NCBI GenBank assembly: GCA_028282585.1
Contig: JANQHR010000046.1
Span: forward strand, 82,924 to 114,923
DNA: 32,000 nt
Source of the DNA: Bacteroidales bacterium
GTDB taxonomy: Bacteria; Bacteroidota; Bacteroidia; Bacteroidales; UBA12077
Direction: 5' to 3'
Of the stretch, positions 8,101 to 32,000 are shown in pieces; the first letter of the stretch is position 1, and each line of letters opens with the position of its first letter. The position numbers and the translations under genes are program-made. The notes below the pieces were generated by a model. The model was not told the origin of the DNA, did no database searches, and was given only the letters and a program-made list of their open reading frames with translations.

Positions 8101-11100
8101 ATATTCCTCTATCTCAAAATCAATAGAAGTTAATACCTTTTGTTTAAATTGTCCATCCTTTTTTGCGAATACCGTTCTAAATGATTCATGTCTGTTAATT
8201 AACATATTAAATACATTTCCAAAAACACCAGCGTCAACTTCTCCTTCCAAGATAAAAGAGTTAGATATTATGTACCCATAATTATTCTTAGATAATTCAT
8301 CAATTAAAAGTAGTTGCTTTTGCGAATATGATACTTCGTAATACTCCTGATGCTGTACTTTCGGAATAACATTTCTATTGTAATTTAACTGATTTGTTGA
8401 ATCAGTTGAATTATCTATTAATTCATTTAGTTTATCGATATCAATTCTATTAAAATCGATGCAATCAATAAGTTTTATTTTATATTCATTACCAGTATAA
8501 GAAGGATCATTATAAAGCATTTTTTGAAGATTCCTAATAAATGGTTCTACTGACAATAAAGAAACAAACTCTTCAGCTTTAATTTTTGCAATACTTGACT
8601 GCTTTTCATAAACTTCTTTGCTATAATATAAATCTTTTAATGCCTTTATCCAAGGTTCTATTTCTTGTTCAGGAACTATTGCTTGTGGTAAAGAATTTTC
8701 GTTAAACTCATTCTTATATTCTTTAATATGATTAATAGGTATCAGGTAATCCGTTTCTAATTTTGCTTCTATTAATCCTCCATGCTGACTAGCTAAAACA
8801 GGAATTCCCCTTAACATAGCATCAGTACAGGCCATACCAAATCCTTCAGCCCATAATGTTGGCATTAATAATATCTTTACATTAGCCAAGAGTTCATTTA
8901 AACTCTCTTTATTTTCCATTATTGTAATGTTAGGCACCTCATTCATCAACCTCATATCTGTTGGCGTAGTACCCCAACCCGGAACAATTGCGAATTTAAT
9001 TTCAGGTAATAATTTTGCTAAAGTCAATAGTATTTTAATTCCTTTTACATCACACGGATTAAACATAAAAACATATTCATTATCAAAGGAAGCTAACTTT
9101 GGAAAAATGTCATTTCCAAAATGAGGCGGATGGTTTACAAAAGTACTGAATCCAGTATGTGTTTTAACATAATTAGAAACATACTCACTAATTGTTACAA
9201 TCTGAGTTGATTTACCTATTAATTCGGTTCGCTTTTTTCCAGGGTAAAGACTTTCAGGCCCGAATGGAAGTAATTGGGGAGTATGAGCTAAATATATTAT
9301 ATTATCGGATCTAACCTCATGAATAGCTTTTAACAGTTGTTGAGATGGATCTTCTGCAGAAATAAATATCCAATCGGGTTGAAATTCTTTAATTATCTTT
9401 TGAAGTTCTACTTTTAAATCATCAGTTTCTAAAATTGCATGTACTTCAACATTCTTTATATTAAAAACATACTTTTTATCATAAACATCAACGGTTATTC
9501 CATCATCTTTTAAGCTTTCCAATAATTCCTGGCTCGTAATATCACTAGGAACAGCTAGTGCAGGTGTAACAACTTTTACATTATGACCAAGTTGTGCAAT
9601 TTCTTCTACCAAATATTTATTTGATTTATTAGCGCCTCCAAATACTCTTGTATAAGGTAGATTCATAGTTAAAATCAAATCAAGTTTAATATTAGGTGCT
9701 ACATCTATCTTCTGTAGAATTTCCTTAATATTTGCAATATCAGATTGCTCTATTTTTCTTCTTAATATCAGTTTCCCAAAATCTTGAATTGTTGTTTTTG
9801 AAAATAGAACTACAAAATCAATATCTGTTGAGAATTCATGATTTATCCTTGATAATAATTTTATTGCTAGTAAACTGTTTCCACCTAAATCAAAAAAGTT
9901 TGAGTTAATACTAATTTCATCAACTTCAATATTTAAAACTTCGGCCCAAATAGATGCTAATTGTTTTTCAGTCTTATTACGAGGAGCAATATAGTTATTG
10001 TTAATACCTGCACGTGGTTCCGGTAATTTTTCTTTATCAACTTTTCCGTTAATTGTCAAAGGTAAATTATCAATAATGACAAAAAATGATGGGATCATGT
10101 ATTCTGGAAGCTTTCTTTTTAAAAACTCCCTAAGAATATCATTCAGCTCTGATATTTTATTATCATGGAGTATAATATATGCGCACAGATATTTTTCACC
10201 AGAGTCACTTAATTTATCCACAACAATTGTATCTTTAATCAAATCATGTTTTAGAAGATTCTTTTCAATCTCACCTAATTCAATACGATACCCTCTTATT
10301 TTTATCTGGTTATCAATCCTTTCAACGAATTCTAAGTTTCCATCTGATTTAAAAAAGGCCTTATCTCCGGTTTTATATAAAATATGGTTATTGGAAGTAT
10401 TAATAAATTTTTCAGATGTAAGTTCAACTCTGTTCAAGTATCCTTCGGCAAGGCAGTTTCCTCCAATATAAATTTCACCTGGGATTTCTTTAGGAATAAC
10501 ATTAAATTTATTATCGAATAAATAAATATTAGAATTTGATATTGGTTTTCCAATAGGAACATTTTCGGCATAGTCATCTTCAATTTTGTATTCATAAATC
10601 ATACATCCAACCGTTGCTTCAGTTGGACCATATTCGTTATATATTTGTACAGATCTCTGAAATGCCTTTGATACAATTCTGCAGTCTTTACTTTTAAGCT
10701 GATCTCCACCAATAATCAGTTTCCTAACATTTGAGTTTTTAAGATTATATTCATCTAATATTTTTAAGTGAGCTGGTGTTAACTTTACGATATTTATATC
10801 CTTATTATCAAATATTCTGCTAAAAGTTTCAGGAATATCTGTCGAATCATAAATAATAATTTTACCACCGGTTAAAAGTGGAACATAAATAGAGGTTTTG
10901 GTTAAGTCAAAGGATATGGATGAATATAATGGAAAATTAAAATTACCATCTATGTTATATATGTCCGAAGCCCAATTTATATAATTAGCAATACTTTCAT
11001 GATTAACAATTACTCCTTTTGGATTTCCAGTTGAACCGGAAGTATAAATTATGTATGCGCTTTTATAATTCTTGTTTGATATATCAAAACTCTGACCATT

Positions 11101-12300
11101 TGAAAATATATTATCATTTTTTATACTAACTATATTATAATCATGATTCCATTCCTCTACATATTTAAGATCTGTTATTAAATTGTTAACATTTCCATCC
11201 TTCATCATAAATTCGATACGTAACTTAGATAAGTTGGTATCAATAGGCATATAGCAAGCACCTGTTTTTAAAACTCCCAGAATGCTTATAATAAGCTCAA
11301 TTGAATTATCTAGCATAATTCCTACTATCGAATTTTCTCCAACACCTTGCATTATTAAATAATTTGCTATAGCATTTGATTTAATATTTAATTCCTTATA
11401 AGATAGCTGTTCTTCATTATATTCAACAGCAGCATTATCTGGAGTTTCCAAACATTGTCTGACAAATAATTCACAAATAGAATTATTTAAGTAATCCTTC
11501 TTAGCAGTATCATTAAATTTATTTACTAACTCTTCTTTTTCTTCCGATGATATTAGTGAGAAAGAATTTATTGGATTTTCTAAGTTACTTATAACAGATT
11601 TGAAAAATCCTTTATAATATTTTACTAAATTTTTTATTAACTCTTCAGAGTAAAGACATGAGTTGTATTTTACTTTTCCTTTAAATATTTTACTTTCTTT
11701 TTCAAATGAAAATGAAAAGAGTATGTTGTAATTAATTTCGTTAAGATATCCTTCTTTTTGAATATTTTCATATAATATACCAATATCAAATAAAGGAAAG
11801 CTTTCATTCTTTTTTAAGTTTAATCCCATCTTTTGAACAAGTGCATCAACTGGGTAATTTTGATTTCTAATAACATTAACTAAATTGTCCTTTGTACTTA
11901 GAATAATATCCTTAAAACTTTTCTCCCCATTCACTTGATTTCTAACACATAAAACAGTGTTAAGAAATTCATCCTCAACCTTTTGTTCATGAATTGATGT
12001 ACCTATACTGATATCCTCAGATTGTACATATTTAGATAAAAACGCACTTATTCCGGCAATTAATAATACCTGAATTTTAAAATCCTGTTCTTTACTGATG
12101 TCAAGTATTTTCAATGTAAGGTCTTCATCAAATTTGAACTTATACTCCTGCTTTTCGATCTCTTTATTTATCAAAGAATCTTTACTATATGGAATTATTG
12201 TTTTCTCTTCAAAACCTTTTAAATAATCCAACCAGTACTTTTCTTCGTTATATCCTATATTGTTCAGATATAATATTTTATCAGTTTTACTATTACCCAT
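5104..12300 (-). CDS. NRPS, two modules with an embedded glycosyltransferase: truncated C - A - T - GT - C - A - T
   Basis: 2398-aa ORF with ATG at 12298-12300 (verified) and stop at 5104-5106. It contains two full A-domain motif sets, two carrier motifs ([16 protein letters not shown]), one HHIISDG, and a GT-B-like block with [22 protein letters not shown]. Confidence 0.92.
   Translation of the reverse strand: [2398 protein letters not shown]
5176..5388 (-). other. Peptidyl carrier (T) domain followed by an acidic C-terminal tail
   Basis: aa ~2305-2375. [13 protein letters not shown]...[14 protein letters not shown], with Ser at aa 2342. The tail, aa 2376-2398, reads ...[19 protein letters not shown]. 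Confidence 0.9.
5431..6969 (-). other. Adenylation domain; hand-extracted code DVWHFSLVDK (Ser)
   Basis: aa ~1778-2290. [101 protein letters not shown]. The code is identical to the Ser code I recall for EntF. Confidence 0.85.
7021..8367 (-). other. Condensation (C) domain
   Basis: aa ~1312-1760. [35 protein letters not shown] (nt 7930-7950, verified), [41 protein letters not shown]. Confidence 0.9.
8521..9693 (-). other. GT-B fold glycosyltransferase domain (GT4/Glycos_transf_1-like) embedded between T and C
   Basis: aa ~870-1260. N-lobe: [39 protein letters not shown]. C-lobe: [24 protein letters not shown]...[39 protein letters not shown]. The EX7E-type motif is present as E1152-x7-D1160 (nt 8821-8847, verified on DNA). 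Confidence 0.75.
9766..9987 (-). other. Peptidyl carrier (T) domain
   Basis: aa ~772-845. [14 protein letters not shown]...[14 protein letters not shown], with Ser at aa 809. Confidence 0.9.
10006..11499 (-). other. Adenylation domain; hand-extracted code DLTKIGEVGK (Asn/Asp-like)
   Basis: aa ~268-765. [85 protein letters not shown]. Confidence 0.88.
11551..12300 (-). other. Truncated condensation domain (C-terminal lobe only, no HHxxxDG)
   Basis: aa 1-250. [10 protein letters not shown] (YWxxxLxG-type motif), [56 protein letters not shown], then the C-A linker [15 protein letters not shown]. The protein starts about 20 aa before the YW motif, so the whole N-lobe including the catalytic His motif is absent. 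Confidence 0.75.
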
Positions 12301-12392
12301 TTTAATTTGATTAAAACTTCGACGAAATCTAAGAGTTACTTTGTTTATAGACGTTGATTAATATTCAGATATTTTCTTAACTGTTAAGTGTG

Positions 12393-13721
12393 TTAAAAAT
12401 TAAATGAAGAATCATTTATATCGGAAATATTTGTAATTACCTCTTTTTTAGTATTATTCTTGATAACCTCCATACCATCTTTATCAAAAGTATTGACACA
12501 AAAAGAAAAATCTTTAAATCTGGTAATCCTGAATGTATTATCATCATGCCTTTCTTCCTCTACTTCATCAGAATAACTTCTTGCTCCAAGAACCTCATTT
12601 AGTACATTCCATCTACGCGCAATTTCTCCATCCTCCACTTTATTACTGAATCCTGTTGAAGTAGCACCATTTACATCGCTGTACCCAAAGTGTTTAACTT
12701 TATTAAAACACTTATCTTTTTTAAAAAATTCGGTTAACTCATTAAAAATTTCAATAGTTTCTCCTGGGAAGCCTACCATAATATCTGCAACCATATGCAT
12801 TTTAGGATTATCAAATTTTATTTCCTGAATTGTATCGTATAACTTGGTTAAGTTAATAGGTCTTCCCATGCGGTCCAGGATGTGCTCATTAACGTGTTGC
12901 AGCCCTATATGCAATTCATTTATCCATCCTTTTTTACATAAATCCTTTATTTCAGTTGAGTACTTCTCTAACCATCTAATATGTAAATAACTAAAATAAA
13001 GATTTGCCAATGGAACAGCATTTTTTATTTCATGAACTAGTTCTATTATTGTTTTGTTGCTATCGATTCCATAGGCAAAAGCATCTTCTCCCATTAAATA
13101 TATTTTATCGTAACCTTTTTCAACTCCGGTTTTTACTTCTTTAATTATATCTTCAACAGGTCTACTGTTTATATATCCTTTTGCTTTATTTATAATGCAG
13201 AATGTACACTCTCTTAGACATCCTTCAGAGATTTTTATATAATATACAGGAATTTTTTCTGGAGGTGTTAGGTTATACTTGTTAAAAACATTGACATATT
13301 TAACATCCTTAAATTCTACTTTCGCTCCAATTATCCTGTCAAGAATTTCCTCTTCATGTATGCCAATAATTTCTCCCCCAAATTGTTCTTTTAGTTTTTC
13401 TGACTGTGTCTTTGGCAAACATGCCATAACAATTATATTCTTTTCAGGAAAATTAACTTCTCTTGCAGCTTCTAGTATTTTAATAAACTTCTCATACATC
13501 AAATCATGGAATCCACAACCGCAAATAATAATTTTATCTACATTTAAATCATCACATACCTTCCACCCGTTAGTTCTAAAATATTTTTCAACCGTAGCAT
13601 AATAAGAAGTGTGTCTTTCGCAATGGACATTATTAGTAACTATAGCTACTCTTTTATCTAATAATAAATTATTCATAATAAGAGTTATTAAATTATTTAA
13701 GGGATTACTGTAAATGTTCAC
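12393..13721 (-). CDS. Radical SAM methylthiotransferase-family protein (RimO/MiaB-like)
   Basis: 442-aa ORF. The GTG at 13719-13721 overlaps the upstream TAG by 1 nt. An alternative ATG at 13674-13676 (MNNLLLDKR...) is at least as plausible. Radical SAM motif: YIKISEGCLRECTFCII (compare E. coli RimO YLKISEGCNHRCTFCII, from memory). The N-terminal UPF0004-like domain has three spaced Cys (NNVHCERH, IICGCGFHD, IVMACLPK; spacing ~35 and ~33 aa). Also MVGFPGETIEIF and ARRWNVLNEV. Confidence 0.75.
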   Translation of the reverse strand: MNIYSNPLNNLITLIMNNLLLDKRVAIVTNNVHCERHTSYYATVEKYFRTNGWKVCDDLNVDKIIICGCGFHDLMYEKFIKILEAAREVNFPEKNIIVMACLPKTQSEKLKEQFGGEIIGIHEEEILDRIIGAKVEFKDVKYVNVFNKYNLTPPEKIPVYYIKISEGCLRECTFCIINKAKGYINSRPVEDIIKEVKTGVEKGYDKIYLMGEDAFAYGIDSNKTIIELVHEIKNAVPLANLYFSYLHIRWLEKYSTEIKDLCKKGWINELHIGLQHVNEHILDRMGRPINLTKLYDTIQEIKFDNPKMHMVADIMVGFPGETIEIFNELTEFFKKDKCFNKVKHFGYSDVNGATSTGFSNKVEDGEIARRWNVLNEVLGARSYSDEVEEERHDDNTFRITRFKDFSFCVNTFDKDGMEVIKNNTKKEVITNISDINDSSFNF

Positions 13722-23888: not shown

Positions 23889-25034
23889 TTATTTAGTATT
23901 GTAATAATACTTTCTGAGTGCGTAACTGGATATTATGTTTTTTTGTATTTGTGATGTTCCTTCAATTATCTCCAATACCTTAGCTTCTCTAAATAACCTT
24001 TCAACAGGGTATTCTGAATAACATCCATTTCCTCCATGAACTTGTACAGCATCAATAGCAACATTCATTGCAATTTTTGAGGAAAAATATTTTGCAATTG
24101 TAGTTTTTATTACAGCTTCATGACCTTTATTCATTCTATTATTTGCAGCTTCAATACATAAGGCTCTTGCTGCATGGATATTTGTAGTAGCATCAGCAAT
24201 CATTCCCTGAATATGTTGAAAGGTATGTATACCTTTCCCAAATTGATTTCTATTTCTTGAATATTTCACCATTGCATCTAACGCTTCCTGTGCAATAGCA
24301 ACACCCGCCCAAGCAATACTATATCTTCCATTATCAAGCGCAGTATTAACAACAAATGAAAAGCCGCATCCTTCTTTGCTTAACAAATTCTCACGAGGTA
24401 TTTCTACATTTTTAAATTCAATTTCTGATATATGTGAAGCTTTATTAGCTAATAAACCTTTTATTGGCTTAACTTCTATCCCCTCATAATTGCGTTCAAC
24501 AATAAAAGTAGATATTCCTTTTTCTCCTCTTGCTACAACTATGAAGAAATCAGCAATTTCAGCAAAACTTATCCATTTTTTCTTTCCATTTAGAATATAT
24601 CCGGAATTAGAATCTGAATATGAACACTGAATATTTTTTGCATCCGTACCTACATTTGGTTCAGTTAAAGCAAAAGCCCCAATCTTCTCTCCTGTTGACA
24701 TCATTGGTAACCATCTCATCTTTTGTTCAATACTCCCCCATTTTAGCAAAGTTTCAGCAACTAAAGAGGTATTAACAGTTATTAATCCACGCGTATTACA
24801 ACATGCTTTACCAATTTCTTCCGTAAACAATCCATAATGAAGTGAATCTAGCTCAAGGCCACCAAAATCTCTTGGTATACTTGCAGTTAAGTATCCATTT
24901 TTAGCTAAATTAGTAATTAAATCATTTGGCAGTTTTTCCTCGTTTTCAAAAATAGTAGCAAAAGGCCTTATCTTTTTTTGAGCAAATTCTTTTACTTCTT
25001 CAATAACAGTATTTTGATCTATCAAATTATTCAT
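23889..25034 (-). CDS. Acyl-CoA/acyl-ACP dehydrogenase family flavoprotein (FkbI-like)
   Basis: The ORF track gives 389 aa from a TTG at 25056-25058. I prefer the ATG at 25032-25034 (MNNLIDQ...), preceded by AAAGAGG. ACAD-like motifs: GAFALTEPNVGTDA, WISFA, VQVHGGNGC, EAKVLEIIEGTSQIQKNII. Confidence 0.85.
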   Translation of the reverse strand: MNNLIDQNTVIEEVKEFAQKKIRPFATIFENEEKLPNDLITNLAKNGYLTASIPRDFGGLELDSLHYGLFTEEIGKACCNTRGLITVNTSLVAETLLKWGSIEQKMRWLPMMSTGEKIGAFALTEPNVGTDAKNIQCSYSDSNSGYILNGKKKWISFAEIADFFIVVARGEKGISTFIVERNYEGIEVKPIKGLLANKASHISEIEFKNVEIPRENLLSKEGCGFSFVVNTALDNGRYSIAWAGVAIAQEALDAMVKYSRNRNQFGKGIHTFQHIQGMIADATTNIHAARALCIEAANNRMNKGHEAVIKTTIAKYFSSKIAMNVAIDAVQVHGGNGCYSEYPVERLFREAKVLEIIEGTSQIQKNIISSYALRKYYYNTK

Positions 25035-25045
25035 TGCCTCTTTAG

Positions 25046-25747
25046 TTATAAACTGCAAATGGCAACGGTAAAATCGTAGACATACCCATTACTACTCAAG
25101 CTCTGCCTCACTTTTAAACCTCCATTCTCCAGTATATTAATCAGTTCCGACTCTTTCAATAGTTCTCTGTATCCTAAATTGAGTTCTGGATGCATTTCCA
25201 TAAAAACTCGTGTTAGAACAGTATCTGTAGGTACTGAGATAATTATAACACCATCTTCGGCTACATATTTTTTATGTTGCTCAATGATTGATGTTTTATC
25301 CATAAAGTGTTCAATAAGCCCAAAACTCCCTACAATATCATACTTTTGATCCAGTGATAAGTCAAAAATATCTTCACGTAAGTAAGATATATTTTTAACA
25401 ACAGTATCCTTTATCAGTGAAAAAGAATTAAACGCTTCTTCTGATTTGTCAACAAGCGTGGCCCTTCCTCCATACTGATTTAAAAGCCATCGGCTTAAAA
25501 ATCCAGTTGCGGCTCCTAACTCAAGTATTTTAGGATTTGATTTTATTTTTTCTGTTGATAAAAGTTCAAGCATTAGTCTAGTAAAAGAAAACGATAATCT
25601 GAATTTGTCTTCTTTTAATAATTCTCGTATTTGAAAAAATAGCTTTTCTTTATCACAACTATTGATTAGTTCCTTATTTCTATCCTTTGAAAAAAACATG
25701 TCCCATTCGAAACCTTCTTTTGATAAATAATCTGTTGTTATATACAT
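25046..25747 (-). CDS. Class I SAM-dependent methyltransferase (in the position of FkbG)
   Basis: 233 aa with ATG at 25745-25747 (verified). Motif I ILELGAATGFLSRWL, acidic post-I LVDKSE, YDIVGSFGLIEHF, DGVIIISVP. Confidence 0.8.
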   Translation of the reverse strand: MYITTDYLSKEGFEWDMFFSKDRNKELINSCDKEKLFFQIRELLKEDKFRLSFSFTRLMLELLSTEKIKSNPKILELGAATGFLSRWLLNQYGGRATLVDKSEEAFNSFSLIKDTVVKNISYLREDIFDLSLDQKYDIVGSFGLIEHFMDKTSIIEQHKKYVAEDGVIIISVPTDTVLTRVFMEMHPELNLGYRELLKESELINILENGGLKVRQSLSSNGYVYDFTVAICSL

Positions 25748-25788
25748 TTTAAAAACGATATTATTTAATCCGATAAAAGCAATTATGT

Positions 25789-26034
25789 TCAGTTCCTATT
25801 TTTATTGATAAGATTAATGATATTATCAATAGAACTAAAATTTGAGATATCAATATCTTCATTATTTACAGAAATACTAAACTCACTCTCCACATAACTA
25901 AGCAGTTTCATTGCAAAAAGAGAATTAACAAATCCTTTTTCAAAAATGTTATCACTATCAGAAAAAATGACTTCATCATTAAAAACTATTAAATTGCTTT
26001 CGATGAATTTTCTAATCTTATCTTTAGTTTCCAT
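25789..26034 (-). CDS. Stand-alone acyl carrier protein (FkbJ-like)
   Basis: 81 aa with ATG at 26032-26034. Carrier motif FEKGFVNSLFAMKLLSYVE (Ser within VNSL at the DSL position). It lies between the FkbH-like and methyltransferase genes. Confidence 0.75.
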   Translation of the reverse strand: METKDKIRKFIESNLIVFNDEVIFSDSDNIFEKGFVNSLFAMKLLSYVESEFSISVNNEDIDISNFSSIDNIINLINKNRN

Positions 26035-26046
26035 AATTTTAAAAAT

Positions 26047-27081
26047 TTAGTTTATTGATAATTTAATATATGGTGGAAATTCTTGAATTTTTTCAAGAGT
26101 ATTTTCGAATTTTATGTAGCCGTTATCTAAAACTAATACTTCCTTAAAATTGGAAAATTTATATGTTACGTACATCATTTTATTACGATCCGTCTTGATA
26201 AAATCTGCAGTTACCTTTTTATTTTCTGTTTTTGCTTGTTTCATAATATAAGAAAGTAGTACTGATCCTACACCACGTGATATAACTCGACAAGACATTA
26301 ATAATAGTTTTACTTCCCATGTAATTTCGGTAATATGTATTAAACCCAAACCTATTTTTCCATATGATCCATACTTGTCTTTTAATTCACAAACCAATAA
26401 TTTATGATTAGGAGATGATCTAAAATAGTTAAGTTCCTTATAACTATATGTTTTCCCTGTTGCATTTAATTGATTAGTACGCACAGTCAACTCCTCGGCT
26501 CGTTGAAGATCTTCTTCAGCTGCTTCTGAAATAATAAATTCCATATTTAATGAGGCTAAAAACTCATCTTTGGGTCCTTCATACTCTTCTTCAAGTCTTG
26601 TTCTTTTAATATTCTCAAGATACATTAATCTTCTTCGTTGAGAATCTTTTGTTATAAATTTCGGATTAAATCGTGATCTAGATAATAATTCTTTATAATC
26701 TACTGAATCAATACATTCAACTTGAGGACACTGGGATTTAACCTCCTCTCTTTCATATGGTTGATCATCAATAAAAACAATTGTATCAATTCCAATATTT
26801 AAATCTTTTTGTATTTGAGCGACCGATGCTGACTTAGCATTCCAATTAATTTGAGGATATAAAAAATAATGATCTATGCTGAATTCTTTCAATTTTCTCA
26901 TAGCATCATCATAGTTATTCTTACTTGATATTGAGTTTAAAATCCCTCTAGAATCTAATGTATTTAATATATCCTCTATACCGGTTTTTAATTTTATGGT
27001 TTTAGACTCAGTTAAAACATTATCCCAAATTGTGTTATCTAAATCCCAAATAACACATTTAACCTCTTTCTTATATTCCAC
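26047..27081 (-). CDS. FkbH-like protein (HAD-IIIC phosphatase + acyltransferase, glyceryl-ACP forming)
   Basis: 344 aa with an apparent GTG start at 27079-27081. HAD motif I VIWDLDNTIWD, SISSKN (motif II-like), IVFIDDQPYERE. The C-terminal half carries LLLMSCRVISRGVG, matching the FkbH-family SCRVxxRG Cys motif as I recall it. Confidence 0.8.
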   Translation of the reverse strand: MEYKKEVKCVIWDLDNTIWDNVLTESKTIKLKTGIEDILNTLDSRGILNSISSKNNYDDAMRKLKEFSIDHYFLYPQINWNAKSASVAQIQKDLNIGIDTIVFIDDQPYEREEVKSQCPQVECIDSVDYKELLSRSRFNPKFITKDSQRRRLMYLENIKRTRLEEEYEGPKDEFLASLNMEFIISEAAEEDLQRAEELTVRTNQLNATGKTYSYKELNYFRSSPNHKLLVCELKDKYGSYGKIGLGLIHITEITWEVKLLLMSCRVISRGVGSVLLSYIMKQAKTENKKVTADFIKTDRNKMMYVTYKFSNFKEVLVLDNGYIKFENTLEKIQEFPPYIKLSIN

Positions 27082-27099
27082 CTTATTAATAGATAAACA

Positions 27100-27954
27100 T
27101 TAGTATTTATAAAATCCTTTGCCCGTTTTTTTACCATAATCTCCAGCATGTACCATTTTTTTCAACAAAGGACAACATCTAAATTTAGGATCCTGATATT
27201 CCTCATAAAGAACATCTAACGAATTAACAACCGTATCTAAACCTATTAAGTCAGCTGTTTCTAACGGGCCCATTTTATGGCCATAACCACGCTTAAATAT
27301 TTCATCAATTTTATCAGGGCTAGCAACTTGGTCTTGAACCAAAAATGCAGCTTCATTCATAAATAAATGTGACAGTCGATTTGCAACAAAACCTGGAAAG
27401 TCTTCTACAACTATTGCCTTTTTATTTAATAGTTTAAGTATTTTCTCTGCTTTATCAATTGTGTCTTTACTAGTATGATATCCTTTAACAACTTCCACTA
27501 TATTTTTAAGTGGAACGGGATTCATAAAATGTAATCCAATCACGTTTTCGGATTTTTCAAATTCGCCTGCAATTTTAGTTATTGAAATACAACTAGTATT
27601 TACAGCAAAAATTTCCCATTCAATTTTTTCGTTTTTTAACTCTGTGTATAAACTCTTTTTAGTATTCCAATTTTCGGTTATATTTTCAACAATAATATCA
27701 AGTTCTTTAAAATCCTCCCATTCTTTTGTAAAAGTAATCTTAGCCAAAACGTGCTCTGTACTTACATGAGCAAATTCCTGTTTTATCATTTTCACTAACC
27801 TTAATTCACTACCTAGCTTTTGTTTGGCATTAAGTAGTGCATTTTCTGAAATATCCTTCAATATTACATTACAATTGTTCAGTGCAAAATCAAGAGCAAC
27901 GCCTACTCCCATAACCCCTGCTCCGATTACACCAACACTTATTTCTTTATTCAT
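27100..27954 (-). CDS. 3-hydroxyacyl-CoA/ACP dehydrogenase (FkbK-like)
   Basis: The ORF is open to 28014, but the ATG at 27952-27954 (MNKEISVGVIGAGVMGVGVA) places the Rossmann GxGxxG at the normal N-terminal position. Other motifs: HFMNPVP, GFVANRL, MGPLETADLIGLD. Confidence 0.85.
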   Translation of the reverse strand: MNKEISVGVIGAGVMGVGVALDFALNNCNVILKDISENALLNAKQKLGSELRLVKMIKQEFAHVSTEHVLAKITFTKEWEDFKELDIIVENITENWNTKKSLYTELKNEKIEWEIFAVNTSCISITKIAGEFEKSENVIGLHFMNPVPLKNIVEVVKGYHTSKDTIDKAEKILKLLNKKAIVVEDFPGFVANRLSHLFMNEAAFLVQDQVASPDKIDEIFKRGYGHKMGPLETADLIGLDTVVNSLDVLYEEYQDPKFRCCPLLKKMVHAGDYGKKTGKGFYKY

Positions 27955-28030
27955 TTTTCTATTTTTAATAAACAATCTATATATGTTAGAATGGATGTAT
28001 CCAGTATGTTGCAACTATAGTTGACTGAAT

Positions 28031-31000
28031 TTAATTATTCAAAAAGCTATTTTTCATAAAATCTTTTCCTTCTTCTAAAGTTTCGAAATTATTCACAGTA
28101 GTATTTTCTTCACTCTGTTCAGATTCCAAATGATCTGTTAATCCTTTTATAGTGGTATACGTAAATAAGGTTGTAATAGGAATTTCTTTGTCGAGTAACT
28201 CGTTTAGTTTAGTATTCACTAAAATTAAACTTAAAGAGCTTCCTCCGAGATCAAAGAAATTATCATTTACACCTATTCTATTTAGTTTTAAAACTTCTTT
28301 CCAAATTGCTTCAACCGACTTCTCCATTTTGCTTTCAGGTGCAACATATGTTGTCCCTGTCATGGCCCTATCTTTTTGCGGTGCAGGAAGTGATTTAAAG
28401 TCAATTTTACCACTAATTGTCAACGGAATAGAAGGAATCTCTGTGAAATATGAAGGTACCATATATTCAGGTAATGATTCTAATAGAAATTCTCTTAAGG
28501 TATTTGAATTAACATTTTCTGAAAAACCATTCACCGGAATGAAATAAGCTGCAATATATTTCTCATCATCTCTAATATTTACTTTTTCGCTCACCCCCAG
28601 CCTTCTTAAAAAGTTACCATATGCCTTTTCGGAGACCTTACAATTTAAATCTTCTTCAACGTTCTCAAGGGATAAGTGATCTAGTCTTTTTTCCCAACTT
28701 GTTGCTGAACCATAATAATGAAATCCATGATCTTTCATAAAACCATAATCTCCAATTTCTTTTATAGCACAGTTTGTTGAATAAACTGCAAAGTCTTTTT
28801 TCTTTTTCCAGTATGAGTCTTGTTTATTTAAATAGGTTATTAAATCCTCATTTTTAATATCACAAAACCTATAAAAATCCAGAAACCTCACTTTATCATG
28901 TATTCTACCGTCCGTTACTACATCTATATCAACTAAGTCAAATATTTTACTATCAATCTTTGGAGTATTCTTTTGCATATTTAATATTTCCTTTTCAATT
29001 AACTGATTATCCATATTTTCAGATTTCATGAAAATATTAAGTTTGTTTTCAATTATTTGACCCCTTGAAAGTGTAGCTCCAATAACAACTTTAATATCGT
29101 GTTTGTAAGCATACTCAGCAGCAAGCGAACTTGATACATGAAAACATCCCCTACATACAGTCGAAAAGGATTTCATACTTTCTTTAAGTATAATATCAGA
29201 TATATCGTGCTTTAAAATGATATTTTCAACACCCAACGATGATGTTACATATTTTATATTCTTAATATCTGATTTAGAAAAGTAACCATTGTCATATGTT
29301 AAAGTTAATACCTTCAAACCCATTTTAACCAGTTGATATAAAGCATAACCTGCTCCCCGTCCTCCTGCATAAAGTAAAATACAATCATATTTACTTTCTT
29401 TATCTTTATTTTGCTCTTTTACAAAAGTTTGAAGATCATCTAAAGATTTAAAATATTCATTAATGACTTTACTATTTTTTTCCAAGGAATTACACTGGTT
29501 ACAGATATTACTGTCATCTATCTTAATCTCTGGATAAGTAGAATTAATTCCGCATTTTTTACAATATTTTAATTCCGGTTTATCATCCTTTGGCGACCTA
29601 ACCATTAAAACACAGTCCTTAATATTCTGATGTTTTTGTAAAGCATTCTTTATTTCTCCAAGTTCAATTCTATATCCTCTAACCTTAACCTGTTCGTCTT
29701 TTCTTCCTTTAATTTCAATATTCCCATCTATTAACCTTCTACCAATATCTCCGGTTTTATAAAGTTTCCCTTCTCCAAATGGATTATCAATAAATACTTC
29801 ATTTGTTTTTTTCCAATTATTAATATATCCTCTTGCAATACTATCTCCTGCTATACAAATCTCACCATAATAACCAAGTGGTTTTTGTTGTAAATCGTCC
29901 GAAAGAATATATACTTGATTATTTGCAACATTATTGCCAATAGGAATTATTTCTCGAGTATCATCTTTCTTTAAAGGATAAAATGTATTATTAATAGTAC
30001 CTTCTGTTGGACCATAAGTATTAACAACCCTACCTTCCAAATAATTATGGAAATTTCTAACAACATTGGCAGCAACAGGTTCAGCTCCTATAAACAGGAG
30101 TGGTATTTTAATTTTAATATCATTTTCATAGGAATCTAAAATATGGGTAATAGCAGTAAACATAGATGCTGTGCAGTACATCTTTGTAATTTCAGTAGCT
30201 TTTGACAGAAGTTTTATTAAATGGTTAGCATCTTTACTTATTATGTCATTAATGACTTTTACTTTAGCACCTTTGTACAATGGCCAAAATACTTCGAAAA
30301 CTGACGGATCGAATGTAAGATTTGTACGTTGTGCCATTACATCAGTTTCTAACATCCCAAATTCCTTATCCATCCAGAATACACAATTATTTACTTGTTT
30401 GTGTTCCACCATTACACCTTTTGGCACTCCTGTTGATCCTGATGTGTACATAACAAAAGCCAAATCACTACCATTGGTGGGTATATCCAAATTCGAAGAT
30501 GGTTTATCTTTTAATTGATCAACCATTTGATCAATAATTATAATATTCCTGGTATCCAGCACATTTTTTTGTAATATTTTTTTATATACAATTCCATTTA
30601 TAGACTCTAGTTGCCTAGTATCAGGAATATTAAAGTCATTCTTAAAAAATTCCTTAAGTAATTCTTCAAAAGTATATTCTCCTTCACCAAGTACAGCTAA
30701 ATCAACATTTTCATCTTTTAGAATAGTATCGTAATCACTTGATGCATACGGCCCACCTACAATTAATGGAACCTTTATTCCCCAATTTCTAATAATAGAA
30801 ACTGTTTGGTGAAAAAAGTCTCTGTAAAAAGTCAAAGTTCTTATTCCAATTAGATCTGGATTAAACTCTTTTACCAAGGTTTGCAACTCCTGGTAATTAT
30901 CAAAATCAACACCTGCCTTATATATAAGCCCATCGATCTTATCCTTGAATTTCTTTTTAAGATATGTCAATAAGTATACTAAACCAATAGGTTGTTCAAC

Positions 31001-32000
31001 AACCTTATATAGCATACTGTGACTACTGAAGTGCTGAGATAAATCTAATAGCAGTATTCTTTTTTGATTTTGTTTTTTTTCGCTTGCTGTATTACCTGAA
31101 CTGTTAAAAACTATTGGCGCATCAATTTTTATTTTTTGATCGAATTTTAGCTGTGTATTATTTAATCCGGCAAGCTCCATAATATCTTCAACATTATTAA
31201 TTTCAACAGGCAAATAAGCATTATATTTTTGTATAAGGGCCGTTTCATTTAAGACCTTCATCTGTGCCGGAAGTACCTGTTTAAGCCGATCTTTATTAAG
31301 AAAATACTCATTCATAAAATCAGCCTGATACTTTCTTGTAAAAGATTTCGGAAATGGTAAAGTTTCCGGTAGTTCATGAAATGCCCTATCTTTTGAATTC
31401 ATTATATCACTTTTTCGCACTCCATTTTTCAAAGCAAATTCTTCCATTTCTGTATTTGGAAAGATTTTTAGAATATGTATATATGGAAAATGTAACCATT
31501 TAATATCCTTTATAAATTTTAGGGTCATCATAGCTTCCTCTTCTGTTTCGGTTGGGAATCCATGCATGGTTGCCATTTCCAGTATTACATGTGGATGAGT
31601 ATTTGCTATATAGTTTACAACATCACGAAATTTATCAAGGTTTAGGTTCTTTTTTAGTAATTTTTGTAACCTTGGGGAGGCTGTTTCCAATGATAAATTA
31701 ATTCCTCTGGTACCTGCTTCTACCATCAAATCAATATAATCCGGAGTCATGATATCTCCTCTTAAACCATTTGGAAAGAATAACTGAATATCAAGCTTAT
31801 TTTTTACAATATTTTGAAGAAGCGCGCCACTTTCTCGTAAATTCAAATTAAAACAATCATCAATAACAGCAAAGTTCCGAACACCTTTTTTATAAAAAGA
31901 TTTTATTTCCTCGAAAATATTATCACCACTTCTATGGACATGGTGTTTAGACCAAATTTTATGACAATAAAGACATTTATACGGGCACCCCCGTGTTGTT
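28031..32000 (-). CDS. NRPS, 5'-truncated by the window edge: ...A(A1-A2 outside window) - radical SAM - B12-binding-like - A(A3-A8) - Zn-ribbon/PP-loop-like domain - A(A9-A10) - T
   Basis: The ORF track starts at a TTG (31846), but the frame stays open to nt 32000. My hand translation of 31847-31999 gives TTRGCPYKCLYCHKIWSKHHVHRSGDNIFEEIKSFYKKGVRNFAVIDDCFN, colinear with aa 683-733 of the 1-4947 protein. The stop is at 28031-28033. Confidence 0.9.
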   Translation of the reverse strand, partial: TTRGCPYKCLYCHKIWSKHHVHRSGDNIFEEIKSFYKKGVRNFAVIDDCFNLNLRESGALLQNIVKNKLDIQLFFPNGLRGDIMTPDYIDLMVEAGTRGINLSLETASPRLQKLLKKNLNLDKFRDVVNYIANTHPHVILEMATMHGFPTETEEEAMMTLKFIKDIKWLHFPYIHILKIFPNTEMEEFALKNGVRKSDIMNSKDRAFHELPETLPFPKSFTRKYQADFMNEYFLNKDRLKQVLPAQMKVLNETALIQKYNAYLPVEINNVEDIMELAGLNNTQLKFDQKIKIDAPIVFNSSGNTASEKKQNQKRILLLDLSQHFSSHSMLYKVVEQPIGLVYLLTYLKKKFKDKIDGLIYKAGVDFDNYQELQTLVKEFNPDLIGIRTLTFYRDFFHQTVSIIRNWGIKVPLIVGGPYASSDYDTILKDENVDLAVLGEGEYTFEELLKEFFKNDFNIPDTRQLESINGIVYKKILQKNVLDTRNIIIIDQMVDQLKDKPSSNLDIPTNGSDLAFVMYTSGSTGVPKGVMVEHKQVNNCVFWMDKEFGMLETDVMAQRTNLTFDPSVFEVFWPLYKGAKVKVINDIISKDANHLIKLLSKATEITKMYCTASMFTAITHILDSYENDIKIKIPLLFIGAEPVAANVVRNFHNYLEGRVVNTYGPTEGTINNTFYPLKKDDTREIIPIGNNVANNQVYILSDDLQQKPLGYYGEICIAGDSIARGYINNWKKTNEVFIDNPFGEGKLYKTGDIGRRLIDGNIEIKGRKDEQVKVRGYRIELGEIKNALQKHQNIKDCVLMVRSPKDDKPELKYCKKCGINSTYPEIKIDDSNICNQCNSLEKNSKVINEYFKSLDDLQTFVKEQNKDKESKYDCILLYAGGRGAGYALYQLVKMGLKVLTLTYDNGYFSKSDIKNIKYVTSSLGVENIILKHDISDIILKESMKSFSTVCRGCFHVSSSLAAEYAYKHDIKVVIGATLSRGQIIENKLNIFMKSENMDNQLIEKEILNMQKNTPKIDSKIFDLVDIDVVTDGRIHDKVRFLDFYRFCDIKNEDLITYLNKQDSYWKKKKDFAVYSTNCAIKEIGDYGFMKDHGFHYYGSATSWEKRLDHLSLENVEEDLNCKVSEKAYGNFLRRLGVSEKVNIRDDEKYIAAYFIPVNGFSENVNSNTLREFLLESLPEYMVPSYFTEIPSIPLTISGKIDFKSLPAPQKDRAMTGTTYVAPESKMEKSVEAIWKEVLKLNRIGVNDNFFDLGGSSLSLILVNTKLNELLDKEIPITTLFTYTTIKGLTDHLESEQSEENTTVNNFETLEEGKDFMKNSFLNN
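28127..28354 (-). other. Peptidyl carrier (T) domain
   Basis: Track aa ~1165-1240. MEKSVEAIWKEVLK...FFDLGGSSLSLILV, with Ser at aa 1204. Confidence 0.88.
28367..28570 (-). other. Adenylation domain segment A9-A10
   Basis: Track aa ~1093-1160. EKYIAAYFIP, LPEYMVP (A9), PLTISGKIDFKSLP (A10, Lys517 equivalent present). Confidence 0.85.
28571..29584 (-). other. Zinc-ribbon + PP-loop-like adenine-nucleotide-alpha-hydrolase-type domain (WbpG/N-acetyl-sugar-amidotransferase-like) inserted between A8 and A9
   Basis: Track aa ~755-1092. YCKKC...(16 aa)...ICNQC (nt 29492-29563), then KYDCILLYAGGRGAGYALYQLVKMGLKVLTLTYDNGYFS. AGGRGAG (nt 29348-29368, verified) occupies the SGGxDS PP-loop position. Further downstream are STVCRGCFHV and LGVENII. 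The layout matches the CxxC..CxxC + YDCI-x-x-SGGKDS + 'vDnGw' pattern I recall for this family. Confidence 0.55.
29603..30484 (-). other. Adenylation domain segment A3-A8; hand-extracted code DPFYFGTINK (no match to any code I can recall)
   Basis: Track aa ~455-748. YTSGSTGVPKG (A3), TFDPSVFE (A4), NTYGPTEGTIN (A5), GEICIAGDSIARGY (A6), YKTGD (A7), GRKDEQVKVRGYRIELGEIK (A8). Confidence 0.85.
30647..31063 (-). other. B12-binding-like domain (paralogue of 1528-1962)
   Basis: Track aa ~262-400. KRILLLDLS...EQPIGLVYLLTYLKK...ELQTLVKEFNPDLIGIRT...VPLIVGGPYASSDYDTIL...VDLAVLGEGEYTFEELL...INGIVYKK. Confidence 0.7.
31172..32000 (-). other. Radical SAM core domain (paralogue of 2068-3015), partial at the window edge
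   Basis: CPYKCLYC, with Cys codons at 31985-31987, 31973-31975 and 31964-31966 (verified). AVIDDCFNL, LETASPRLQKLLKKNL, MHGFPTETEEEA. By eye, roughly 60% identical to the other copy across the aligned block I compared. Confidence 0.85.
31532..31567. repeat. 36-nt dispersed repeat, copy B (35/36 identical to 2437-2472)
   Basis: See copy A. The coordinates were counted directly on the sequence lines. Confidence 0.9.

Follow-up and report, generated by a model that had tools for sequence, protein, structure and literature searches.

What can a PP-loop-fold domain do inside the A domain of an NRPS when its PP loop reads AGGRGAG in place of SGGxDS? The question is raised by a gene on the minus strand of the window, by which we mean the whole stretch of 32,000 nucleotides analyzed here. 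A preliminary description had placed an insert of this kind between A8 and A9, had assigned it to the WbpG type and had proposed that it either exploits the adenylate of its host or is purely structural.

Organization of the NRPS gene

The frame of the NRPS gene was open from window position 31999 to the stop codon at 28031-28033 and exited the window at 32000. Translation of the reverse strand confirmed the A8-A9 insert of 338 aa at 28571-29584; a plus-strand reading of the same interval was rejected, as it contained stops throughout. A 99% identical locus (L001:3653-8953) carried the whole protein of 1766 aa and additionally showed a partial C domain and A1-A2. The host A domain retained A3, A4, A5, A7, A8, A9 and A10, including the Lys of A10, around the inserts. 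The features of this gene and the second NRPS of the window are given below.

28031-32000, minus strand: visible part of the NRPS gene, with the stop codon at 28031-28033; domain order A (A1-A2, beyond the window), radical SAM, B12-binding-like, A (A3-A8), AMDH-like insert, A (A9-A10), PCP
30644-32000, minus strand: first insert of the host A domain, at the A2-A3 site, a radical-SAM core followed by a B12-binding-like Rossmann domain
31964-31987, minus strand: radical-SAM CxxxCxxC motif, CPYKCLYC
30644-31063, minus strand: B12-binding-like Rossmann domain (Pfam B12-binding)
29651-30457, minus strand: A-domain core from A3 to A8, core motifs all intact
30413-30457, minus strand: A3, FVMYTSGSTGVPKGV
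29651-29707, minus strand: A8, GRKDEQVKVRGYRIELGEI
28571-29584, minus strand: AMDH-like, NASAT-fold insert of 338 aa between A8 and A9
28232-28474, minus strand: A9-A10-PCP block
28454-28474, minus strand: A9, LPEYMVP
28385-28414, minus strand: A10, SGKIDFKSLP
28232-28249, minus strand: LGGSSL, with the phosphopantetheine Ser of the PCP
1-4947, minus strand: second NRPS, TubC dock, C, A and PCP

Labby et al. are said to have described, in 2015, interrupted A domains with methyltransferase, ketoreductase or oxidase inserts at a8-a9 or a2-a3. The module in the window resembled these in that an auxiliary tailoring domain was spliced in between A8 and A9 and the remaining A domain was intact. The window A domain was, moreover, doubly interrupted, because a second insert occupied the A2-A3 site. 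The known inserts differ from those of the window, one of which is a B12-radical-SAM unit and the other a domain of PP-loop fold.

The radical-SAM insert matched Pfam Radical_SAM and B12-binding, as well as NCBIfam families of B12-binding radical-SAM methyltransferases (the PhpK family and the KedN5 N-terminus) with E-values of about 1e-26 to 1e-17, and the embedded domain is probably a C-methylase. No auxiliary-cluster motif was found in the sequence of this insert. The preliminary description had missed the B12-radical-SAM insert, which provides the most informative context in the host A domain. The second NRPS (1-4947) also carried a radical-SAM and B12 insert at A2-A3 but lacked an AMDH-like insert; its A-domain code, derived by hand as DLTKVGEVGK, was read as Asn.

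Fold and family of the A8-A9 insert

The motifs reported earlier, namely the two CxxC pairs, AGGRGAG at the place of SGGxDS, LTLTYDNGY and VCRGC, were all found in the translated insert at the spacings given below.

29492-29563, minus strand: tetracysteine Zn ribbon, consisting of CKKC at 29552-29563 (C8, C11) and CNQC at 29492-29503 (C28, C31); the pairs read YCKKC and ICNQC, the latter in the wider context SNICNQC
29348-29368, minus strand: PP-loop remnant AGGRGAG (residues 73-79) within KYDCILLYAGGRGAG, 34 aa past the second CxxC, in place of SGGKDS[T/S]
29282-29308, minus strand: LTLTYDNGY, the beta-strand and loop following the PP-loop helix (strand E92-98 in the AF2 model)
29141-29158, minus strand: VCRGCF (C144, C147), 70 aa past the loop, aligned with the CxxC of TtuA and [4Fe-4S]-LarE
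29042-29080, minus strand: GATLSRGQIIENK, an invariant clade-specific motif whose canonical form is TGLSRGQ-FETRL
28769-28783, minus strand: YSTNC (C272), candidate third cluster ligand
28634-28651, minus strand: DLNCKV (C315), a Cys specific to the clade core

NCBIfam TIGR03573 (WbuX) was the best HMM match of the insert, with an E-value of 7.5e-28 and a score of 97.9 bits over profile positions 2-314 of 344; the curated cut-off of this model is 203.2 bits, and both the window insert and the AMDH of CysH (151.8 bits) scored under it. The Pfam search of the insert returned QueC only, at a sub-threshold E-value of 0.021, and the family was found through NCBIfam and the PDB. The HMM matches of the CysH AMDH included LarE, QueC, NadE, TtcA, TilS and GuaA models; the window insert matched WbuX and two marginal models only. 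PDB entry 8wex was the top match of the insert by sequence and by fold. The AF2 model had a pLDDT of 93.2, and Foldseek aligned it to 8wex with an E-value of 6.8e-11 and a TM-score of 0.62, followed in the ranking by NcsA, TtuA, LarE and QueC. The Foldseek matches at E < 1e-4 comprised NASAT, NcsA, TtuA, LarE, QueC, NadE and AsnB, and the model showed their Rossmann-like alpha/beta/alpha fold. As evident from these comparisons, in which an unrelated fold was not the best match, the earlier WbpG-type, PP-loop-fold assignment holds, and the predicted structure supports a domain of the WbpG/WbuX type in which a Zn ribbon is joined to the PP-loop (AANH) fold. Its family match was far beyond chance, with E-values of 7.5e-28 for TIGR03573 and 7e-68 for the CysH AMDH and with 476 library proteins matching at E <= 1e-30.

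Judged by its sequence, the closest known relative of the insert is the AMDH domain of CysH/AlbIV; BLASTP against the CysH AMDH gave 34% identity over 316 aa. The preliminary description had not recognized this domain as the nearest relative. Gross et al. (2021, PMC7966384) reported 69% identity between the CysH (cystobactamid) AMDH and its AlbIV (albicidin) counterpart and named the conserved ATP-binding motif SGGKD as core region 1 of the AMDH. In the same study, the AMDH of CysH/AlbIV was described as dehydrating or isomerizing carrier-bound Asn, the CysH AMDH as acting on the PCP-loaded residue and the AMDH host A domains as Asn-specific, and purified CysH was dark brown (PMC7966384). Apart from methyltransferases, very few domains are known that interrupt A domains, and the AMDH is one of them.

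The AMDH of CysH/AlbIV and the window insert were similar in position (about 27-30 aa past A8 and ahead of A9, with A9-A10 and the PCP downstream) and in length (about 340 aa, with end-to-end homology). They also shared the CxxC...CxxC Zn ribbon, the VCxGCF and STNC cysteines and the DNGY, SRGQ and DFYRY motifs; within LTLTYDNGY, D-N-G was common to the window insert and canonical AMDH. The AMDH acts, and the window insert would be expected to act, on the residue carried by the PCP of its own module. In contrast, the AMDH keeps SGGKDS where the window insert has AGGRGAG.

The NASATs (WbuX/WbpG/PseA, TIGR03573; 8WEX) shared with the insert the Zn tetracysteine, the Rossmann-like AANH core and the loop context YDC-x4-(S)GG. 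They differ in that they keep SGGxDS, that most of them lack the CxxC...C triad found in the insert, and that they are free-standing enzymes for which conversion of sugar N-acetyl groups to acetimidoyl groups is described, whereas the window insert lies within the A domain of an NRPS. The next fold matches were the [4Fe-4S] sulfurtransferases TtuA, NcsA/Ncs6, TtcA and M. maripaludis LarE, of which TtuA has Zn fingers like the window insert. These enzymes require an intact SGGxDS and ATP for substrate adenylation, whereas the insert has no intact loop; they act on tRNA or on a nicotinic-acid cofactor, and their identity to the insert was 10-18%.

Cysteines and loop in the clade of the window insert

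The AMDH-family clade that holds the window insert, named G1 here, was monophyletic in an NJ tree and set apart by a clear E-value gap. The radical-SAM motif was present in the same A domain as G1 in every case with enough upstream sequence (17/17 loci and 15/15 representatives, together 32/32), whereas 96 of 100 canonical AMDH representatives had no such insert in their A domain; in a few cases, such as P0200 and P0205, a canonical SGGKDS AMDH shares its A domain with a radical-SAM insert. Co-occurrence of the two inserts is not proof of cooperation, and their functional coupling is inferred. Specificity codes were obtained by motif anchoring, not by a predictor. The host code derived by hand was D-P-F-Y-F-G-T-I-N-K, and the clade consensus, DPWY[LIF]GTINK, was conserved. 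Compared with the Asn-type code DLTK-GEVGK, the window host code DPFYFGTINK did not show the Asn specificity of AMDH hosts. No substrate match was identified for DPWY-GTINK; it may resemble the Dpg code DPYHGGTLCK or the acidic 'xxNK' codes, but no assignment was based on this resemblance.

In LpNASAT (8WEX), the tetracysteine motif CXXCXn[GN]XCXXC binds Zn (PMC10607449), and the motif as defined there was found in the window insert as CKKC...SNICNQC. The four Zn-ribbon Cys were present in 100% of G1, 100% of canonical AMDH and 89-100% of stand-alone NASATs. C144, C147 and C272 were likewise 100% conserved in G1 and invariant in canonical AMDH; in the stand-alone NASATs, the VCRGCF CxxC pair was missing from 8 of 9 and the position of C272 was Leu. 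The TtuA-type likeness that the preliminary description had seen in VCRGC was borne out by the profile alignment, in which this segment fell, column for column, on the CxxC of P. horikoshii TtuA ('PPCSYCG') and of the [4Fe-4S]-LarE of M. maripaludis ('NRCYNCK'). We take the CxxC cysteines of TtuA and [4Fe-4S]-LarE to be cluster ligands. The third invariant Cys of the insert lies farther downstream; the HMM alignment of the insert to TtuA ends at profile position 170, and C272, which is invariant in the clade, is a candidate for the third cluster ligand. The CxxC...C triad of G1 most likely holds an Fe-S cluster. C315 was found in 20 of 21 core members of the clade and is replaced by Asp or Glu in canonical AMDH; as a fourth cluster ligand it was weakened by the divergent members, only two of five of which have this Cys.

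AGGRGAG aligned onto the SGGKDS of 8wex, PH1257 and the CysH AMDH and does fill the PP-loop position, as had been supposed. The window insert lacks the functional SGGxDS loop of PP-loop ATP pyrophosphatases. Among canonical AMDH, the loop was SGGKDS in 100 of 101 resolved representatives. In G1, the Asp position was Gly in all 22 locus and window sequences and was never Asp among the 21 library representatives, two of which had also lost the GG pair. Position 73 was S, A, N or G and position 78 was A or S; the first and/or last Ser was retained in about half of the members, and the window copy had the most eroded loop, with all three polar residues replaced. In core G1, G74, G75 and G77 were invariant and position 76 was basic (Arg/Lys). 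Outside the loop, Y207, R306, P263 and A106, which are conserved in AMDH and NASAT, were replaced in G1; the G1-conserved changes relative to canonical AMDH included R268Y, N275K, I279D, D298E and V299K, and about 40 positions were conserved in both groups yet with different residues. The D-N-G and SRGQ segments were retained.

This conservation pattern indicates that the core G1 loop is reshaped, not decayed. It may bind some anion or adenine nucleotide, because G74, G75 and G77, the basic residue at 76, D-N-G and SRGQ are kept. G1 nevertheless appears to have lost ATP-pyrophosphatase (amide O-adenylation) chemistry, because the Mg/PPi-ligating Asp is gone, the flanking Ser are unfixed and Y207, R306 and P263 are replaced. 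An insert that is still ATP-dependent would instead activate an amide or carbonyl by means of a non-canonical phosphate loop. The product would be a nitrile, amidine or thioamide, as in the reactions of AMDH, NASAT or TtuA-type enzymes. The fold and overall pocket retained in the model, the Gly-rich loop with its conserved Arg/Lys, the segments in common with canonical AMDH, the Ser residues kept by about half of the members and the TtuA-like Cys, which are suited to sulfur transfer, would be in line with such an activity. However, the Asp of SGGxDS is, to our knowledge, invariant in characterized PP-loop ATP pyrophosphatases and was found in no G1 member, some members lack the GG pair itself, and replacements also affect residues beyond the loop that AMDH and NASAT have in common. 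A side-chain amide may also be lacking, because the host code is neither Asn nor Gln. We regard continued ATP-dependent activation as quite unlikely.

The missing catalytic signature, the erosion of the window loop and the variation at positions 73 and 78 inside the clade would also suit a relic without catalytic activity, which would persist only as a structural spacer or as a platform for docking and whose metal sites would be purely structural. Mean pairwise identity in G1, which covers at least seven phylum-level lineages, was 58% for the insert, 51% for A9-A10 and 45% for the PCP, and the insert differed from that of the near-identical L001 by 11 synonymous and 5 non-synonymous codons; the insert is under purifying selection. 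The purely structural role suggested earlier fits poorly with a domain more conserved across phyla than the PCP, with synonymous changes outnumbering non-synonymous ones, with three invariant non-ribbon Cys and with many clade-specific invariant polar residues where canonical AMDH conserves different ones. A relic is unlikely.

The other earlier proposal was that the insert, having lost its own PP loop, uses the aminoacyl adenylate of the host A domain, and its location within an adenylating enzyme and its partly kept nucleotide-binding scaffold (D-N-G, SRGQ) are consistent with this. About 100 canonical AMDH representatives, with A8 directly upstream, argue against it, as they sit in A domains and retain their own PP loop. 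The loop does not become dispensable merely by lying within an A domain, because canonical AMDH at the identical A8-A9 site nearly all have SGGKDS. Furthermore, in the host adenylate it is the alpha-carboxylate that is activated, and this adenylate is spent in thioester formation, and the CysH AMDH works on the PCP-loaded residue (PMC7966384). Use of the host adenylate is thus very improbable.

Proposed role and distribution of the module

We consider it somewhat probable that the insert is a repurposed AMDH-like domain, which carries metal, needs no ATP and acts with the radical-SAM insert on a carrier-bound residue. G1 has kept the structural Zn ribbon and the TtuA-like triad and has acquired invariant polar residues of its own. 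The host A domain would load a non-Asn alpha-amino acid (code DPWY-GTINK), the target of G1 would be the aminoacyl thioester on the PCP of its own module, and the radical-SAM/B12 insert would then alter the loaded residue through radical chemistry. Without ATP, the AMDH-like insert would either hold the tethered substrate and provide this radical reaction with a second Fe-S centre or perform an ATP-independent Lewis-acid step, such as isomerization or dehydration.

It is also possible, if rather unlikely, that both inserts form one composite radical enzyme, in which the PP-loop-less domain gives a TtuA-type three-Cys [4Fe-4S] auxiliary cluster and an unactivated carbon of the PCP-bound amino acid is modified. 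The cluster could pass on electrons or, by analogy with MiaB, RimO, BioB and TtuA, bear sulfur or a substrate ligand at its open iron. If true, such an enzyme would perform a modification performed by no known NRPS domain.

The module was found at 50-70% identity in Bacteroidales, Halanaerobiales, Bacillota, Omnitrophota, Acidobacteriota, Aminicenantes and Spirochaetia, and the cultured Pseudobacteroides cellulosolvens ATCC 35603 had the same module at L021:5657-12082, with the homologue of the insert at L021:10001-10978. No accessory genes recurred across the 21 loci, whose flanks held mostly megasynthase genes and spurious antisense ORFs; a MiaB-like neighbour gene recurred in L016 only. In full-text literature, neither a radical-SAM insert within an A domain nor its combination with an AMDH-like insert was found described, and literature on the P. 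cellulosolvens NRPS and on later AMDH work yielded nothing relevant.

A single A domain into which both a PP-loop-fold domain and a B12-radical-SAM unit are inserted represents an undescribed module type, for which P. cellulosolvens ATCC 35603 offers an experimental entry point. G1 is a natural separation-of-function variant, in which the ATP loop was discarded and every metal-binding Cys was kept, and it can reveal the role of Fe-S and Zn apart from adenylation. The amino-acid chemistry of this module likely gives a new building block, probably unseen before, in the NRPS-PKS products of anaerobes.

Sequence and fold of the AMDH-like insert

The window was AT-rich (GC content 29.4%), and the AMDH-like insert was encoded on the minus strand, where translation of 28571-29584 gave 338 aa; the plus-strand reading was rejected, as its translation contained many stops. 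The ORF was annotated at 28031-31846, the frame was actually open up to the window edge, and the radical-SAM motif GCPYKCLYCH was found in the same open frame upstream of the annotated start. In the near-identical MAG Bacteroidales bacterium PL23b_bin.85 (locus L001), which showed 99% identity to the insert, the full protein had 1766 aa. The insertion site was flanked by the adenylation core motifs A8 (GRKDEQVKVRGYRIELGEI) and A9 (LPEYMVP), and the motifs quoted in the preliminary description were all present in the minus-strand translation with the spacing it gave.

Features of the host A domain (residues in insert numbering)
28571-29584 (-), AMDH-like insert
C8, C11, C28, C31 (-), Zn-ribbon pairs CKKC and CNQC, from translation
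34 aa beyond the second CxxC pair (-), KYDCILLYAGGRGAG, from translation
Downstream of KYDCILLYAGGRGAG (-), LTLTYDNGY, from translation
70 aa beyond the loop (-), VCRGCF, from translation
30644-32000 (-), radical-SAM and B12-binding-like insert, between A2 and A3

The Pfam search of the insert revealed nothing above threshold and only a sub-threshold match to QueC. The NCBIfam search matched profile positions 2-314 of 344 in TIGR03573 (WbuX, N-acetyl sugar amidotransferase) with an E of 7.5e-28; the score of 97.9 bits is under the curated cut-off of 203. The sole significant sequence match among solved structures was 8WEX, the N-acetyl sugar amidotransferase of L. pneumophila (LpNASAT), and AGGRGAG lay directly opposite its SGGKDS, as it did in the PP-loop protein PH1257. 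The AF2 model, built from a 96-sequence alignment, was confident (pLDDT 93.2, pTM 0.92); Foldseek again placed 8WEX first (E 6.8e-11, TM 0.62), followed by NcsA, TtuA, LarE, QueC, NAD synthetase and asparagine synthetase. The Zn-ribbon/PP-loop-family assignment of the preliminary description was thus borne out by profile, sequence and fold, and its degenerate PP motif does occupy the PP-loop position; neither an unrelated fold nor a misplaced loop was seen. The NASAT family is defined by two hallmarks, the Zn-binding motif CXXCXn[GN]XCXXC and the PP loop SGGKDS (PMC10607449); the insert has the Zn motif but lacks SGGKDS.

Relationship to AMDH domains and extent of clade G1

By sequence, the closest known relative of the insert is the AMDH domain of CysH from cystobactamid biosynthesis. 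This is a 38-kDa domain within an Asn-activating A domain, which carries an SGGKD motif and converts PCP-bound Asn to beta-cyanoalanine (dehydration) or isoasparagine (isomerisation); purified CysH is dark brown, the colour coming from AMDH (PMC7966384). According to the authors, it is 69% identical to the corresponding AlbIV domain of albicidin biosynthesis, and all homologues lie in Asn-specific A domains (PMC7966384). BLASTP of the CysH AMDH, taken from the supplement of that paper, aligned 316 aa to the insert at 34% identity (E 7e-68) and paired AGGRGAG with SGGKDST. In fragments of canonical, SGGKDS-bearing AMDH, about 30 aa separated A8 from the Zn ribbon downstream of it; the same spacing was found in the window, and the insertion site is therefore common to both. 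Two library proteins, P0200 (aa 94-1290) and P0205 (aa 441-1600), contained doubly interrupted A domains with a radical-SAM/B12 insert and a canonical SGGKDS AMDH. Their hand-derived code, DAQDIGVVDK, was read as Gln-type, a reading that contradicts the published Asn-only statement for AMDH hosts.

The word-indexed search revealed just 12 close relatives of the insert (48-61% identity), all with [AS]GGRG[AST]-type loops, and next came stand-alone amidotransferases at an E of about 1e-8. A locus scan with one genome per species gave 21 loci spanning Bacteroidales, Halanaerobiales (five in one MAG), Halothermothrix, Bacillota, Omnitrophota, Acidobacteriota, Aminicenantes and Spirochaetia, with cultured Pseudobacteroides cellulosolvens ATCC 35603 among the hosts. 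When 1.84 billion representatives were searched exhaustively with phmmer, 476 proteins were returned at E <= 1e-30. About 25 of these belonged to the clade of the window copy, here termed G1 (E 1e-123 to 5e-85), and below a sharp gap came the canonical AMDH family (E 5e-65 or weaker, identity <=37%). The NJ tree recovered G1 as a monophyletic group, with all AMDH domains that carry SGGKDS as its sister.

The G1 module is repeatedly reused inside assembly lines. The Halanaerobiales MAG CSMAG_1614 held at least five separate modules on five contigs (L003, L005, L007, L011 and L015), and two each were found in Halothermothrix B5_bin.9, Omnitrophota MAG222, the uncultured-bacterium MAG SRR26215683_binner23_Refined_38 and Bacillota MAG131. 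Outside the window, at L001:3653-4420, the full-length protein began partway through a condensation domain, with only the C-terminal half present (Pfam profile positions 188-451 of 456), and the gene upstream already ended with a complete C domain. Such a short N-terminus was present in about half of the G1 loci, and a full C domain in the rest.

Mean identity between pairs of complete G1 modules (15 modules)
Radical SAM: 70%
B12-like: 71%
A core: 66%
AMDH-like insert: 58%
A9-A10: 51%
PCP: 45%

The insert is under purifying selection; between the window and L001, its codons differed at 11 synonymous and 5 non-synonymous sites. Many G1-invariant positions were invariant but different in canonical AMDH (R268Y, N275K, I279D, D298E, V299K and the GATLSRGQIIENK motif). 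This conservation pattern speaks for re-specification and against decay, and it disfavours the earlier suggestion of a purely structural domain.

PP loop and cysteine sites

Across 22 sequences (those of the loci and the window copy), the G1 hexapeptide was [SANG]-G-G-[RKQL]-G-[SA]: the loop Asp was replaced by Gly in every one, the first Ser was retained in 59% and the last in about half. None of 21 G1 library representatives had the loop Asp (position 5 was G, A or S); in two, the GG pair was also gone ('ACERVAT'), and another had 'SGSLGS'. Among the resolved representatives of canonical AMDH, 100 of 101 had SGGKDS, as did all the fragments examined. Beyond the loop, several residues that canonical AMDH and stand-alone amidotransferases (NASAT) have in common were replaced in G1.

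Residues of AMDH/NASAT and of G1
Position 207: AMDH/NASAT Y, G1 variable
Position 306: AMDH/NASAT R, G1 L
Position 263: AMDH/NASAT P, G1 K
Position 106: AMDH/NASAT A, G1 D

HMM searches matched the CysH AMDH to LarE, QueC, NadE, ArgG, TtcA, Dph6, TilS, MnmA and GuaA, and the window insert to WbuX and two marginal models only. From these sequence features, we infer that ATP-dependent O-adenylation with PPi release, the chemistry of the family, was abandoned in G1. Some anion or nucleoside binding by the core G1 domain is possible, because its loop remains rich in Gly, a basic residue is conserved there, and both the DNG and the SRGQ segment are retained. The preliminary description had also proposed use of the host adenylate; this is disfavoured, since a PP loop is retained in the roughly 100 canonical AMDH representatives that occupy this very site.

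At the four Zn-ribbon cysteines, no variation was seen in G1 or canonical AMDH and very little in stand-alone amidotransferases, and the same positions bind Zn in LpNASAT (PMC10607449). The triad of C144 and C147 (VCxGCF) and C272 (STNC) was invariant in G1 as well as in canonical AMDH, and 8 of 9 stand-alone amidotransferases lacked it. When the PDB was searched with a trimmed family profile, the CxxC fell column-for-column on 'PCSYC' of P. horikoshii TtuA, in agreement with the TtuA-type likeness noted earlier for VCRGC, and on 'RCYNC' of the [4Fe-4S] LarE of M. maripaludis. In TtuA and LarE, the aligned cysteines are ligands of the Fe-S cluster. Because of this alignment and the brown colour of CysH, a three-Cys Fe-S site in the insert is likely. 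A further cysteine, C315, was specific to core G1 (20 of 21 members) and was set aside as non-universal, with 2 of 5 divergent members having it. P0021, a stand-alone relative of 348 aa with a Pfam NAD_synthase annotation, had Cys at all three triad positions (C144, C147, C272), unlike other stand-alone amidotransferases, and may represent a non-NRPS lineage sharing the same metal site.

Radical-SAM partner, host module and proposed role

The second insert of the host A domain combined a radical-SAM core with a B12-binding-like domain C-terminal to it, and its best matches were families of B12-dependent radical-SAM methyltransferases. Its B12-binding-like part matched the N-terminus of KedN5, and the domain order is therefore permuted relative to class B enzymes. 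No auxiliary-cluster motif was found in the radical-SAM insert of the G1 host. The radical-SAM motif was present in 17 of 17 G1 loci and 15 of 15 G1 representatives with enough upstream sequence, and also in L022. The converse pairing fails: the NRPS at 1-4947 (-), whose A domain was read as Asn-coded, has the radical-SAM/B12 insert without an AMDH-like insert, and in P0200 and P0205 the radical-SAM insert is paired with a canonical AMDH. The copy at 1-4947 occupies the A2-A3 position (about aa 640-1140 of the ORF), and the two copies in the cluster were about 53% identical. All core motifs were intact in the G1 host A domain, and its code was conserved as D-P-W(F)-Y-[LIF]-G-T-I-N-K, which reads as neither Asn nor Gln.

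Directly downstream of the G1 module, a complete methoxymalonyl-ACP-type cassette was located at 23889-28014 (-), encoding a 3-hydroxyacyl-CoA dehydrogenase, an FkbH-like HAD protein, an ACP (81 aa, GFVNSL, small ORF 25789-26034 (-)), a methyltransferase and an acyl-CoA dehydrogenase; a PKS-NRPS containing KS-AT-KR followed. Given this order, a PKS module apparently elongates the chain after the G1 residue, likewise in P. cellulosolvens (L021). Elsewhere, the NRPS at 5104-12300 (-) was ordered A-PCP-GT-C-A-PCP, with a GT4-family glycosyltransferase domain (Glyco_transf_4 and Glycos_transf_1; ORF aa about 887-1198) between PCP and the next C domain; tblastn against the 21 related loci revealed no counterpart. 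At 12393-13721 (-), the PKS-NRPS and NRPS genes flank a stand-alone gene for a radical-SAM protein like the MiaB/RimO-type methylthiotransferases (UPF0004 and Radical_SAM), and a 51%-identical copy lay beside a G1 module in L016 only (11512-12690).

We propose that the G1 domain would no longer adenylate anything, would bind one Zn ion as well as, probably, an Fe-S cluster, and would act on or present the aminoacyl-S-PCP jointly with the radical-SAM insert. It could serve as substrate holder and second-cluster donor for that insert, or it could catalyse an ATP-independent Lewis-acid step. For the latter, the 'aminomutase' half of AMDH would be a plausible precedent, and thioester transposition requires no ATP in principle.

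The AMDH domain family and its superfamily are already known; in the searchable literature, we found no description of a radical-SAM insert inside an A domain, nor of this PP-loop-less clade, its non-Asn host or its strict pairing with an embedded B12-radical-SAM unit. The G1 domain is of interest to NRPS and Fe-S enzymologists, and P. cellulosolvens is a cultured organism in which the module can be tested.
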